Below are positions 4,726 through 8,122 of a stretch of DNA of 64,000 bases, in pieces; position 1 is the stretch's first letter, and each line of letters starts with the position of its first letter. The stretch comes from a virus. Taxonomy: Duplodnaviria > Caudoviricetes. Where the stretch lies: positions 1 to 64,000 of the IMG/VR virus record IMGVR_UViG_3300032320_001447, one strand, 5' to 3'. The notes beneath the pieces were generated by a model, which worked only from the letters and a program-made list of their open reading frames with translations, did not search any database and was not told the origin of the DNA. The position numbers and the translations under genes were made by a program.

Positions 4726-5019
4726 TTAGTCTTTTAATACAGCTAAGATTTCTGTGTCTTTTGCGATGAAATAATCTTCACCTTCGATGGTGATTTTCAT
4801 AGATCCCAATTTAGGAATCAAAACCTTTTGTCCTACTTCTACAGTAGATTTAACATAAGTGTCAGTATGCCAATTATACGTTTCGCTTGTGGCTACTACT
4901 TCGCCCATTTCAGGACGCTCTTTACCTAAGTCTGGAATTACAATGTTTCCGTAGGTTTGTTCTTGTTCTTCAACTGGCTTCAATATTAGAAAACCGTTGA
5001 GTGGATTTAATTTACTCAT
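4726..5019 (-). CDS. groS: Co-chaperonin GroES
   Basis: LNPLNGFLILKP, GNIVIPD..KERP..GEVVA, EILAV; adjacent to groEL. Confidence 0.93.
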   Translation of the reverse strand: MSKLNPLNGFLILKPVEEQEQTYGNIVIPDLGKERPEMGEVVATSETYNWHTDTYVKSTVEVGQKVLIPKLGSMKITIEGEDYFIAKDTEILAVLKD

Positions 5020-5022
5020 TTT

Positions 5023-5223
5023 TTAATTTATTATTTCAGGTTCTTCAATTTTAATACAAAAATATAACATTCCATCTTTTTTGAATGTGGTGTCAGCACC
5101 TAACCATTGTTTAATGTTTTCCACATTAACTTCAGGGTTGTTGACTCTATCTTCAGCGTACTGTCTAAGCACTTGAAATAGATCTTGATTTACTTTGATG
5201 AAATTTTTACAAATAGTAAACAT
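5023..5223 (-). CDS. Small hypothetical protein
   Basis: 66 aa ORF tightly packed between hsp20 and groES. Confidence 0.7.
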   Translation of the reverse strand: MFTICKNFIKVNQDLFQVLRQYAEDRVNNPEVNVENIKQWLGADTTFKKDGMLYFCIKIEEPEIIN

Positions 5224-5232
5224 AACTAAGGG

Positions 5233-5242
5233 CGGTAGGCCT
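5233..5242. repeat. Inverted repeat arm A (CGGTAGGCCT) downstream of hsp20
   Basis: Exact reverse complement of 5748-5757. Confidence 0.85.
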
Positions 5243-5253
5243 CTTTATTTTAT

Positions 5254-5694
5254 TTAGGCATTAACTTGAAGTAACGTCCTTGGTTTGATTTGAATTTTCT
5301 TTGGTAGACTTTCATCAGATAACGGAATTTCTATTTTTAGAAGTCCTTTATCGATGGTAGCTTCTAAAGAAGATAGATCGAACTTGGAAGCAATTTTCCA
5401 AGCCAAATCGAAAGATCTTCGTGCTATTCCTTTGTGGATAAAATTTGTTATAGGTTCTTCTTCTTTTGCTTTTGCATACTTGATGCGAAGAACATCGCCT
5501 TGCACTTCGATATCGATATCTTCGTAGTCCAAACCTACTGCTGCAAGTTCGAATACAATACTGTCTCGTTTCTCGTAAATGTCTAGTGGATAAGAGATTT
5601 TCTCTGCGATTGTAGAGAAATTAGAATTTTGGTCGAATAGATTCTTCCATAGAAGATCAAAGGGATCGACGCCCCAATGGGTTAATTGTGTCAT
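5254..5694 (-). CDS. Small heat shock protein (Hsp20/IbpA-like)
   Basis: YPLDIYE, FIHKGIARRSF, ATIDKGLLKI alpha-crystallin motifs. Confidence 0.93.
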   Translation of the reverse strand: MTQLTHWGVDPFDLLWKNLFDQNSNFSTIAEKISYPLDIYEKRDSIVFELAAVGLDYEDIDIEVQGDVLRIKYAKAKEEEPITNFIHKGIARRSFDLAWKIASKFDLSSLEATIDKGLLKIEIPLSDESLPKKIQIKPRTLLQVNA

Positions 5695-5697
5695 TTT

Positions 5698-5710
5698 ACA
5701 CCTCCTGTGT
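5698..5710 (-). promoter_or_regulatory. AGGAGG Shine-Dalgarno inside mini-hairpin ACAC-AGGAG-GTGT, 6 nt before hsp20 ATG
   Basis: Plus strand acacctcctgtgt. Confidence 0.55.
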
Positions 5711-5747
5711 GTTTTGGTTAATTATTAAATTTAACATTCGTAACTAA

Positions 5748-5757
5748 AGGCCTACCG
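5748..5757. repeat. Inverted repeat arm B (AGGCCTACCG) in hsp20 5' leader
   Basis: Exact reverse complement of 5233-5242. Confidence 0.85.
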
Positions 5758-5770
5758 GTCCTCATTTTCT

Positions 5771-5778
5771 ATAAATAT
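5771..5778 (-). promoter_or_regulatory. ATATTTAT putative promoter of the chaperone operon
   Basis: One of 16 intergenic copies of the motif upstream of minus-strand genes. Confidence 0.6.
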
Positions 5779-5812
5779 ATATCATTTTTGAATGATAATA
5801 AAATTTTAGTTT

Positions 5813-8122
5813 TTAGTGACCATCTCGTAAATTATGGGCAATCATAGGTGGTGCTTTTAAGGCGATACTTAACTTTGTAGTGTTTTCCATTTTGTCTTGT
5901 ACAATCTTAGAGGCTTCTTCAGCGTGTTCTTTAGGCACTTCACAGACTATCTGGTCATGTATTTGGGCGCACACCCAGCCGTTTATTCCTCTCTTCTTAA
6001 ATTCTCTATTGATTTCCATTGCTGCTCTGTTTACGATAGATGCAGACAGTCCCTGAATCTGTACGTTTTTGGCGTTGTTTAGACCGTTGATAAAGTCTCT
6101 ACTAATACTCTTGACTTGATCTTTACCAAATTCGTACTCAAGTTTTCTTTTATAGTTCCAATCAAGTAAATTATCACCCATAGTTTCGTATATTGCTTTC
6201 ACCTTTGGCAAGTGTCTTACTCGACCAACTTGTGTTTTAACATGTCCCAAAGTTTTAGCTTCGTTCTCAGATCTCTTCATCCACTTGTCTAATTCTGGAA
6301 ATCCACTCAGGTAACCTTTAACTAATTTTTCGGCTTCTTTTGTTGTAACATTAATATTCTTACCAAGAGCGTAAGCGCCCATGCCGTAAGGAATACCTAA
6401 TGCGTATGCTTTTGCAGTGTTTCTTTTCTTTGGTGCATGCTTTCTTAAAAAATTATCTGCTTTTTTATCTCCTGAGTATTGATTAAGACCTTCTGTTTTG
6501 ATAGCAATAGTGGAATAAAAATCCCAGTTATTTCTAAAGATATCCTTGAGACCTTCGTCACCAGAAACATGGGCGAATACGTGTGGCTCCAATGATTCGT
6601 AATCGCAATCTACAAATATATTGCCTTCTTTTGGAATAAAGAACGCTCTTACCAAGTTTGTGTATTCTATAATTACTGGATCGTCATCACCTTCTTCTTT
6701 AGGTCTTGGTAGCTGTTGAGCATCTGATCCGTAGCGACCTGATACCGTACCGTGTTGTTTGTAGTAGAAGTAGTAAATCTCATTCTCGCTAGCATTTAAG
6801 AATCGATCTATGTAAGTTGATTTGATCTTTAATAACTTGTTATATATTCTCAAATTCTTTGCCCACTCATAGGTTTCCGAAATAACTTGTAGCATATCTT
6901 CGTCGAACTGCGCTTTACCTTTTTTGGTACTGGATAATGGTTTGAATCCAAGAACACTGAAAGCTATTTCGCCTAACTGATCTTTTGATTGAATGTTAAA
7001 GAAGTTACCATCGTTTGCTTCTCTCCACATTTTCATGCTGATCTTGTTAGAGAAGTCTTCGTCCAATACGTCTGCACCGTTTAATAAGAATTGCTTTGCT
7101 GCAGACTCTGGTAATCTTGCTACTTCTGATTTTGTAATGTTATATTTGCCCGTCTTTTCTGATTTAGGCAATTCTAATCCACACTCTTCTACAACTTTCT
7201 GAGCGAATGCTCCTTTACTATTTGCTGGGTAAGCTTCTTTTGCTTTGTCTAAAATCCAATGCTTGACTCTGCTATCTGAAAGCAATTCTGTTACTACTGC
7301 TTTTGATCTCTTGTTCATCTCTTCAGTAATATCAAGATCTGCTTTTTTCATTGTTTCTACGTCAAGCTTAACACCCACCTCTTCCATTGGAATTGTAACC
7401 TCTCTGTACAATGGCATAACTTCGTCTTCAAAAAAGAAAGTTTCAAGACCTTGTGCGTAAAGCTCTTTGATAAAGTGTTCGTACACTCTTAACGTTAAAT
7501 CAGTATCTGCTGCTGCGTATTTAGCTAGAATGTTTATGTCGGCTTTCCAAATCTCGTAGCTTTCTCTTGTAATAGATCCACCGTTCTCTTTGATTGAAGT
7601 TTTTAACTCGATTTGTTCTTCGTTTGCGTCTTTAGTTACATCAAGACCTAATTCTTTTTGGATGGATTGCGCGATACTTTTTAGACCGAATGGACTAGCG
7701 AAAGCGAAACCTGCGCCTTCTTCGTTTACTGTATGTACAAGTAAAATAGTATCTACGTAAAGACTAGGCAGCAAATCAACACCGTAAAAGTTCTTAACAA
7801 ATCTGCAGTCGAAAGACGCATTGTGCATAATCAACTTTTTACCGACTAGTTTAGATATGAATTGTTTTGCTAGATCTTGGCAATTTTTGCCATCGATTAT
7901 AGCGTCTACTAAAGAATTAGTTTCTTTATCGTAAACCGCAGTAGGCATGTAATAGCCTTTACCGATTTCTGCTGATACTGAGAAACCAATGATGGTTCCT
8001 TGTCTTGTGTTCAAAGAGTTTGTCTCGGTATCGAAAGCAATAATCTCTTTGTCTTTGACATGATTTACCATGTCTTTTAGTTTGTCGAAAGTATCGACTA
8101 ATACATAACTTTTTTCTTGCAT
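5813..8122 (-). CDS. polA: Family A DNA polymerase with 3'-5' exonuclease
   Basis: Exo I FDTET, Exo II HNASFD, Exo III YAAAD; pol motif A DYESLE, B RNTAKAYALGIPYG, C QIHDQIV. Start placed at ATG 8122. Confidence 0.95.
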   Translation of the reverse strand: MQEKSYVLVDTFDKLKDMVNHVKDKEIIAFDTETNSLNTRQGTIIGFSVSAEIGKGYYMPTAVYDKETNSLVDAIIDGKNCQDLAKQFISKLVGKKLIMHNASFDCRFVKNFYGVDLLPSLYVDTILLVHTVNEEGAGFAFASPFGLKSIAQSIQKELGLDVTKDANEEQIELKTSIKENGGSITRESYEIWKADINILAKYAAADTDLTLRVYEHFIKELYAQGLETFFFEDEVMPLYREVTIPMEEVGVKLDVETMKKADLDITEEMNKRSKAVVTELLSDSRVKHWILDKAKEAYPANSKGAFAQKVVEECGLELPKSEKTGKYNITKSEVARLPESAAKQFLLNGADVLDEDFSNKISMKMWREANDGNFFNIQSKDQLGEIAFSVLGFKPLSSTKKGKAQFDEDMLQVISETYEWAKNLRIYNKLLKIKSTYIDRFLNASENEIYYFYYKQHGTVSGRYGSDAQQLPRPKEEGDDDPVIIEYTNLVRAFFIPKEGNIFVDCDYESLEPHVFAHVSGDEGLKDIFRNNWDFYSTIAIKTEGLNQYSGDKKADNFLRKHAPKKRNTAKAYALGIPYGMGAYALGKNINVTTKEAEKLVKGYLSGFPELDKWMKRSENEAKTLGHVKTQVGRVRHLPKVKAIYETMGDNLLDWNYKRKLEYEFGKDQVKSISRDFINGLNNAKNVQIQGLSASIVNRAAMEINREFKKRGINGWVCAQIHDQIVCEVPKEHAEEASKIVQDKMENTTKLSIALKAPPMIAHNLRDGH

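Follow-up and report, generated by a model that had tools for sequence, protein, structure and literature searches.

Evidence for a covarying long-range RNA helix around hsp20 in probable Flavobacterium phages, with a possible role in mRNA processing and stability

Why should a single small heat-shock gene of a phage stand between two GC-rich segments that can pair with one another across its whole length, and does this arrangement reflect chance, a DNA element, or a structure selected in the messenger RNA (mRNA)? The question is raised by hsp20 in a 64,000-nucleotide (nt) stretch of DNA from a tailed virus (Caudoviricetes; IMG/VR record IMGVR_UViG_3300032320_001447, positions 1 to 64,000), here called the window, which is the first 64 kb of a source record of 174,359 bases rated complete by CheckV and in which the minus strand carries every long open reading frame (ORF). 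A first-pass annotation, made from the letters of the window alone, had proposed that the two segments form a duplex in the mRNA and that this duplex serves as a switch for the genes behind hsp20 or as a processing or stabilising stem. Comparison with relatives makes it very probable that a selected RNA helix exists on the hsp20 operon mRNA; what such a helix might do is weighed thereafter.

In the window, CGGTAGGCCT at 5233-5242 (plus strand) has its exact reverse complement at 5748-5757, these being the sole two copies, as the first-pass annotation had reported. The mRNA duplex, put there at about 16 base pairs (bp) with one internal loop, is extended by RNAduplex on the mRNA strand to 17 bp (5+12 bp) at -27.4 kcal/mol, enclosing 501 nt. 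UGAGG (5764-5760) pairs with CCUUA (5231-5227) and CGGUAGGCCUUU (5757-5746) pairs with AGAGGCCUACCG (5244-5233), the two parts of the helix being separated by a 2x1 internal loop in which AC (5759-5758) lies opposite C (5232). The elements concerned, in the direction of transcription, are as follows.

5770-5781, minus strand: promoter-like box TATATATTTATA, core ATATTTAT, assigned by motif, with its end 5 nt from the base at which pairing of the 5' arm begins
5746-5764, minus strand: 5' arm, mRNA UGAGG-AC-CGGUAGGCCUUU, whose columns covary with the 3' arm
5741-5747, minus strand: TTAGTTA, which follows the 5' arm directly and repeats the ORF66 start context in the same direction; the window reads AGTTACG
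5700-5706, minus strand: strong Shine-Dalgarno (SD)-like AGGAGGT, 5 nt before the hsp20 ATG and 39 nt downstream of the 5' arm, free of the helix
5694-5254, minus strand: hsp20, 146 amino acids (aa), Pfam PF00011 at 1.3e-12, PHROG 432, the cistron enclosed by the helix
5227-5244, minus strand: 3' arm, mRNA AGAGGCCUACCG-C-CCUUA, filling the 30-nt spacer between hsp20 and ORF66
5223-5023, minus strand: ORF66, encoding a small protein, the first gene past the helix

The 5' arm probably lies at the extreme 5' end of the transcript, the transcription start site (TSS) being placed by the motif of the box, and the 3' arm has its first paired base 9 nt past the hsp20 stop and its last 3 nt before the ORF66 AUG, leaving the hsp20 leader, the AGGAGGT site and the entire hsp20 ORF within the enclosed 501 nt. 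When the 552-nt RNA is folded, the minimum free energy and centroid structures are both closed by the bracketing helix (z = -3.6), with a predicted pair probability of about 0.99.

Judged from the single sequence, only a weak case can be made for this helix, as the window is not short of GC-rich 10-mer inverted repeats: 14 exact ones (at least 60% GC, 60-3000 nt apart) are present, against 5.4 +/- 3.3 in Markov simulations, and several 9-mer inverted repeats fall within the 1.1-kb stretch around the helix. Both arms are intergenic, and the best downstream partner among the 48 promoter-like boxes of the 174-kb genome belongs to the hsp20 box. An all-vs-all duplex scan of the intergenic regions of the window was dominated by long regions and thus uninformative, and bracketing as a general strategy of the phage was considered and rejected, the runner-up promoter-proximal helices of the 174-kb genome having their partner inside coding sequence. 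It is the comparison of relatives that, on the sequence evidence that follows, puts the helix far beyond chance.

Three IMG/VR scans with hsp20 and ORF66 profiles, covering hsp20 at 50-99% aa identity, yielded 117 distinct loci when pooled, and a matching helix was found in 115 of them. The search for arms was rerun independently of the annotated start, as 12 loci apparently without a helix proved to have an hsp20 start called too far upstream. Pairing between the leader and the segment after the stop reaches -20 kcal/mol or lower in 114 of the 117; L253 follows at -19.8 kcal/mol and L073 gives -22.4 kcal/mol with other windows. The only locus without a 5' arm, L234 (IMGVR_UViG_3300021139_000281), also lacks the promoter box, its polA stop adjoining the leader, and retains the 3' arm AGCCTACTAAGTACCT; this locus may represent a recent deletion or an assembly join. 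The promoter-like box is kept at the same place in almost all relatives. Over the family, the helix has a median length of 17 bp (interquartile range 16-19, range 12-26) and an energy of -22 to -34 kcal/mol, and is built of 1522 Watson-Crick and 69 G.U pairs. Its sequence is by no means fixed: 78 different 5'-arm strings occur, with a nearly invariant core, A-G-G opposite C-C-U, and arm pairs (5' / 3') such as the following.

TTGGTAGGTCT / AGACCTACCAA
GATACGG-CAGATCTT / AAGATCTGTCCGTATC
AGGTAGCAGGTA / TACCTGCTACCT

RNAalifold predicted no pairs on the whole 751-column MAFFT alignment, a null result explained by misalignment of the 3' arms, which MAFFT splits and shifts. Column pairs were instead obtained by mapping the own duplex of each locus onto the well-aligned columns of the 5' arm, and since this procedure leans towards pairing, a non-cognate control and tree-based counts were added. 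Minimum numbers of switches between Watson-Crick pairs were counted on a tree of the hsp20 coding sequences; recombination of whole arm sets could inflate these counts, the arms matching either way. The four columns below carry the compensatory changes in both arms that the first-pass annotation had asked to be looked for in related phages.

Column 70: G-C in 31 loci, A-U in 28; at least 9 Watson-Crick switches
Column 71: U-A in 29 loci, C-G in 28; at least 8 Watson-Crick switches
Column 75: U-A in 32 loci, C-G in 17, U.G in 6, A-U in 2, G-C in 2; at least 7 Watson-Crick switches
Column 59: A-U in 17 loci, G-C in 17, G.U in 14; at least 6 Watson-Crick switches

Cognate arms pair at a mean of -27.5 kcal/mol as against -14.9 +/- 5.6 kcal/mol for non-cognate ones, and only 3% of the non-cognate combinations match the cognate value. 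In partition-function folds of full RNAs of 570-650 nt, the helix has a probability above 0.5 in 57/57 loci and above 0.9 in 45 of them. Complementary leader and post-ORF segments are thus present on one transcript and their pairing is held by compensatory change, as expected of an interaction between 5' and 3' untranslated regions (UTRs), and the proposed duplex of about 500-nt range looping out hsp20 is retained, on the mRNA strand, in nearly all of the relatives.

Covariation alone does not decide between RNA and DNA, because terminal inverted repeats (TIRs) of mobile elements also co-vary. The arms might accordingly be the TIRs of a mobile hsp20 cassette, the borders of a segment that can invert, or a pair of operators bound by a DNA-binding protein; inverted repeats around a cargo gene co-vary between element families as well, and the Flavobacterium phage immuto has no hsp20 at the same polA-groES junction, so that the cassette was gained or lost at some stage. 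This reading is nevertheless highly unlikely. The mismatches are strand-asymmetric: isolated mismatches within the arms are of the G.U type on the mRNA strand in 10 cases and of the A.C type in 1, only isolated mismatches flanked by matches being informative here, as wider counts (43 vs 27 and 38 vs 40, G.U vs A.C) are swamped by the AT-rich flanks. The sense helix is likewise the more stable one in 52 arm pairs, compared with 30 in which the antisense helix is (Wilcoxon p = 3e-4, uncorrected for phylogeny), and there is a constant position at which bulges can occur. Although situated outside the 5' arm, the conserved promoter box is never separated from it, whatever the upstream gene. The copies of a direct repeat (TTAGTTA in the window) follow each arm on its 3' side, whereas a target-site duplication would lie outside the two arms; the segment is flanked by polA and by ORF66 or groES, with no recombinase gene adjacent; and hsp20 is co-oriented with the promoter and the downstream gene in 117/117 loci, none being inverted, so that target-site duplication, recombinase and alternative orientation, by which a TIR-bounded cassette or an invertible segment would be known, are all missing at these loci. 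Taken together, these comparisons indicate that selection is acting on pairing, and on the mRNA strand.

The helix belongs to hsp20 rather than to the chaperonin genes that follow it in the window, where the surrounding genes are arranged as listed here.

8128-5813, minus strand: polA, family-A DNA polymerase, separated from hsp20 by a spacer of 118 nt
5019-4726, minus strand: groES, after a 3-nt gap behind ORF66
4723-3104, minus strand: groEL, after a 2-nt gap behind groES

In other lineages the gene after the 3' arm may be an ORF66-like gene, groES directly, a different ORF of 55-71 aa, or others, and the gene upstream varies too; because the downstream gene varies, the helix is a property of the hsp20 module, which consists of promoter box, 5' arm, leader, hsp20 and 3' arm, and not a chaperonin-specific control. 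The stretch 4900-5900 of the window was found to contain no terminator-like site (a local GC-rich hairpin with a U-tract), hence none between hsp20 and ORF66. Exact or near-exact copies of the promoter-like box occur 14-40 nt upstream of several other minus-strand genes of the window. ORF66 itself has no Pfam or PHROG match. Its family, comprising proteins of 60-79 aa with the consensus ...WLGADxVxKKDGxLYF... and equally without a Pfam or PHROG match, follows hsp20 directly in 50/80 IMG/VR loci and elsewhere stands after a transfer RNA gene or unrelated genes.

Among cultured phages, the closest relatives infect Flavobacterium and belong to the immuto group (GroEL 56% identical); they have polA-groES-groEL without hsp20 and without ORF66. 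In Flavobacterium phage vB_FspM_immuto_2-6A (NC_055915.1; L183:1797-1859), the 63-nt leader and the hsp20 leader of the window have GATATTTAT, AAGTTA and TTAACCAAA in common, as well as the ATATTTAT box, the GC-rich arm being absent from the former; the shared sequence suggests that hsp20 took over a pre-existing groES leader. That an ancestral 5' leader once formed a hairpin and received hsp20 in its loop was also considered and is not supported, there being 30 ORF66-like genes without hsp20 in unrelated contexts, and the idea is further undercut by the lack of a GC-rich arm in the immuto leader. More distantly, blastn of the locus against cultured phages gave no match and tblastn of hsp20 against them gave relatives at 36% identity or less; a pelagiphage and a cyanophage with such a distant hsp20 have ordinary local terminators at the position of the 3' arm and no bracketing helix. 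No close groES relative was found in a scan of bacterial genomes.

Given the heat-shock context, one function that comes to mind is that of an RNA thermometer, in which heat shock melts the helix and releases translation of the chaperone genes, and a temperature-sensitive switch had indeed been suggested in the first-pass annotation. The small heat-shock genes of several bacteria carry 5'-UTR thermometers. In silico, the 10-bp core of the window helix has a pair probability of 0.985-0.994 across 10 to 65 C, the helices of the family have the high stability given above, and the SD and AUG of hsp20 lie outside the helix, whose arms are 501 nt apart and do not form a local hairpin. Neither the window nor any of four diverse relatives matches an Rfam family, ROSE included. 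That the predicted helix remains shut at every temperature between 10 and 65 C, and that neither the SD nor the AUG of hsp20 takes part in it, both speak against a thermometer, a function to which we attach hardly any probability. The further remark of the first-pass annotation, that the arrangement resembles no described heat-shock regulation, agrees with this, the helix being neither ROSE- nor fourU-like.

The function that we favour, tentatively and at slightly less than an even chance, is that of a post-transcriptional processing and stability clamp, probably a substrate of the ribonuclease III (RNase III) type, as the first-pass annotation had offered for an alternative; every mechanistic step of it is inferred. 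Once RNA polymerase has passed hsp20, the 3' arm would capture the free 5' arm, and the helix would shield the 5' terminus of the mRNA against 5'-end-dependent decay and bury the initiation region of ORF66. The near-perfect duplex would then be a substrate of a double-strand-specific nuclease, probably host RNase III, and cleavage would leave an hsp20 mRNA with both ends still paired, and so stable, as well as a separate ORF66-groES-groEL mRNA with a short unstructured leader. In this way the holdase and chaperonin genes, transcribed from one promoter, could acquire different lifetimes and translation rates. The clamp is favoured because of the features that are universal in the family, namely the 5' arm at the transcript start, the 3' arm directly behind hsp20, and a stable, mostly Watson-Crick duplex of 16-19 bp. 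The 5' arm begins mostly 5-12 nt after the promoter-like box, and in many loci a terminating ribosome probably does not reach the 3' arm, which begins 13-15 nt past the stop codon; the helix is also predicted to be too stable to open unaided. Precedents are the end pairings of icaR (PMC3868564) and hbs (PMC5737220), described below. An RNase III domain is encoded in the Bacteroides thetaiotaomicron genome used as a control.

Several observations weigh against the clamp. No RNase III gene was found in the phage. Good RNase III substrates usually span about two helical turns, and the helix, with a median of 17 bp and a 5+12-bp structure in the window, is somewhat short for this. That the A-G-G / C-C-U core hardly varies hints at another factor that recognises it by sequence, a requirement that RNase III would not have. 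The TSS is placed by motif alone, and the relatives are all uncultured contigs. Finally, the spacing of 3-5 nt between the 3' arm and the next ATG in 67 loci would equally fit a purely translational role.

Such a role would be that of a gate that couples translation and needs no cleavage: the helix buries positions -4 to -22 relative to the next start codon, that of ORF66, until opened, for example by ribosomes. Those finishing hsp20 might do so, or those loading at an AUG or an upstream ORF (uORF) beside the 5' arm, and groES and groEL would then follow by coupling, ORF66, groES and groEL being only 2-3 nt apart. The premise is that the ribosomes of the likely Bacteroidia hosts initiate without SD pairing and need an unstructured leader, and these hosts are reported to tune initiation by mRNA structure (PMC6847099). 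The leaders of the phage genes are A-rich and have no SD, both arms lie directly upstream of an AGUUA(U/C)G start context, the first of which is an in-frame hsp20 start in 9 loci, and the long-distance pairing between the coat and replicase genes of MS2 provides a comparable case. That the 3' arm abuts the ORF66 start, as the switch for ORF66-groES-groEL in the first-pass annotation presupposed, is borne out; the link to these particular genes is not, the helix following hsp20 whatever the next gene is and, in about 20 loci, ending at a distance of 17-28 nt from the next ATG. It is also predicted to be fully closed at all temperatures tried. In most lineages no translation covers the 5' arm; the 3' arm often begins 9-15 nt beyond the stop, a distance at which a ribosome terminating there would hardly open it, if at all; and groES and groEL are each preceded by a good A-rich leader. 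The gate is unsatisfying because it has no evident way of opening, and we regard it as a serious possibility that is nonetheless on the unlikely side.

A simpler function would be pure end protection or insulation, in which the helix sequesters the 5' terminus and stabilises the whole transcript without cleavage and without an effect on downstream initiation, perhaps insulating the folding of the hsp20 segment as well. The position of the 5' arm, which begins within a few nt of the expected TSS in nearly all loci, would suit this, and in hbs mRNA a 14-bp pairing of the 5' with the 3' UTR modulates RNase access (PMC5737220). Other leaders of the phage carry local hairpins just past the same promoter box. 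A local hairpin would, however, suffice for end protection, which gives no reason for the partner to have stayed exactly behind the hsp20 stop in 115/117 loci while the arms were replaced many times; the probability of this reading is low.

If the clamp is taken one step further, the helix becomes the mRNA counterpart of a ribosomal RNA (rRNA) processing stalk, such that Flavobacterium-type phages, with likely hosts that ignore SD signals, would excise an end-paired, very stable and possibly circularisable hsp20 mRNA from the operon transcript and thereby unmask the next start, a speculative extension that we consider unlikely. In rRNA, the flanks of 16S and 23S pair over hundreds of nt and the resulting helix is cut by RNase III, while phage T7 has its polycistronic mRNAs divided into stable units at RNase III sites. 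The rRNA stalks resemble the hsp20 helix in that the flanks of a functional RNA unit pair at long range and differ from it in being longer and surrounding a non-coding RNA, cleavage of the hsp20 helix being a proposal only; the T7 sites, in contrast, are local intergenic hairpins and not pairings across a cistron. If excision of this kind took place, it would represent a distinct, reusable way to set stoichiometry inside phage operons.

By kind, the hsp20 helix is a 5'/3' mRNA end-pairing element, and the known bacterial elements of this kind are a handful of single-gene cases (icaR, hbs and hok), each resting on experiments in one organism. The hok 5'-3' pairing forms only once the full transcript has been made and keeps the toxin mRNA inert until 3' trimming refolds it. 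As in hok (cited in PMC3868564), the 5' end of the hsp20 transcript pairs with a distant 3' segment, closing the mRNA, whereas the SD and AUG of the gene enclosed by the hsp20 helix are accessible and transcription runs on into further genes. In icaR of Staphylococcus aureus, the coding region is likewise bracketed, by pairing of the 5' leader with a stretch of the same mRNA that lies 3' of the ORF, and the duplex is cut by RNase III (PMC3868564). What the icaR 3' UTR pairs with, however, is the SD region, so that the bracketed gene itself is kept from being translated, whereas the 5' arm of the hsp20 helix lies 39 nt upstream of the SD at the 5' end of the mRNA, its 3' arm is the intercistronic spacer of a polycistronic phage mRNA and adjoins the next start, and its support is comparative. 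The hbs pairing in Bacillus subtilis resembles the hsp20 helix in being short and long-range; it joins the leader of a small, highly expressed gene to the 3' region of its mRNA and modulates ribonuclease access (PMC5737220). In contrast to hsp20, hbs is a monocistronic host gene of a Firmicute, the nuclease is RNase Y, and there is no link to a downstream start codon. To our knowledge, no family-wide covariation has been reported for the hbs pairing. ROSE and fourU elements share with the hsp20 helix that a cis RNA structure accompanies an hsp20-family gene; they are local and marginally stable and mask the SD or AUG, whereas the hsp20 helix is long-range and very stable and leaves the SD free.

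What sets the hsp20 helix apart from icaR, hok and hbs is therefore the free ribosome site of the enclosed gene, the intercistronic 3' partner that abuts the next start in most lineages, and the deep covariation. More than 100 distinct phage loci with 78 arm variants and repeated compensatory changes, U.G intermediates included, amount to a natural mutagenesis series, carried in a heat-shock/chaperonin operon by uncultured, probably Flavobacterium-infecting phages of up to about 185 kb. As no Rfam family matches, the helix would be a well-supported structured RNA motif new to the catalogues, and it offers a ready-made design for clamping or processing a cistron. If understood, its mechanism would reveal how phages whose Bacteroidia hosts are blind to the SD adjust expression inside their operons.

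The leader between the 5' arm and hsp20 has features of its own. The AGGAGGT of hsp20 is the sole such site among the 52 gene starts listed for the window, the others having A-rich leaders without an SD, and in the hsp20 family an SD is present only in part. Flavobacterium ribosomes are reported to be blind to the SD unless they lack bS21 (PMC9976891), and the SD may place hsp20 under a special translation regime. Where the window reads AGTTACG after the 5' arm, relatives often have AGTTATG, which opens a uORF of 2-7 codons, and others have ACG. In nine loci (L195, L196, L199, L203, L207, L208, L240, L241 and L247) this AGTTATG is in frame with hsp20, giving an N-terminal extension of about 20 aa, e.g. 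MKQTFINRSPEGNTK..., with a start about 100 nt upstream of the usual one, and the stretch that forms a leader hairpin in other lineages is coding there. GTTATG, mostly as AGTTATG, is the start context of 9/52 listed genes, far above the expectation from base composition, with starts on the minus strand at, for example, 3084, 5223, 9187, 13357, 16316, 16814, 18146, 46104 and 53373, and may be a preferred initiation context in this phage.

A second leader element, present in most relatives and lost in the lineage of the window (absent from 5707-5740), is a local hairpin GCNNACC-UUAG-GGNNGC at alignment columns of about 119-141 (e.g. L036:2401-2500, L044:2401-2500), which is preceded by UUAAUUAACC and followed downstream by ACAAAA. 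Compensatory variants of this hairpin include GCTCACC/GGGGAGC, GCTTACC/GGGAAGC, GTTCACC/GGGGAAC and GCATACC/GGGATGC, and its 5' strand (UCACCUU) resembles the anti-SD tail of 16S rRNA. Behind the hsp20 stop, 3-6 nt before the 3' arm, a conserved TAAGTTTTGAAA occurs where groES or a small gene other than ORF66 follows (e.g. L039, L040, L044, L053 and L054), and is absent from the window. The Bacteroidetes -7 promoter element is TAnnTTTG, and TAAGTTTTGAAA, being a near match to it, could act as an internal promoter in those lineages.

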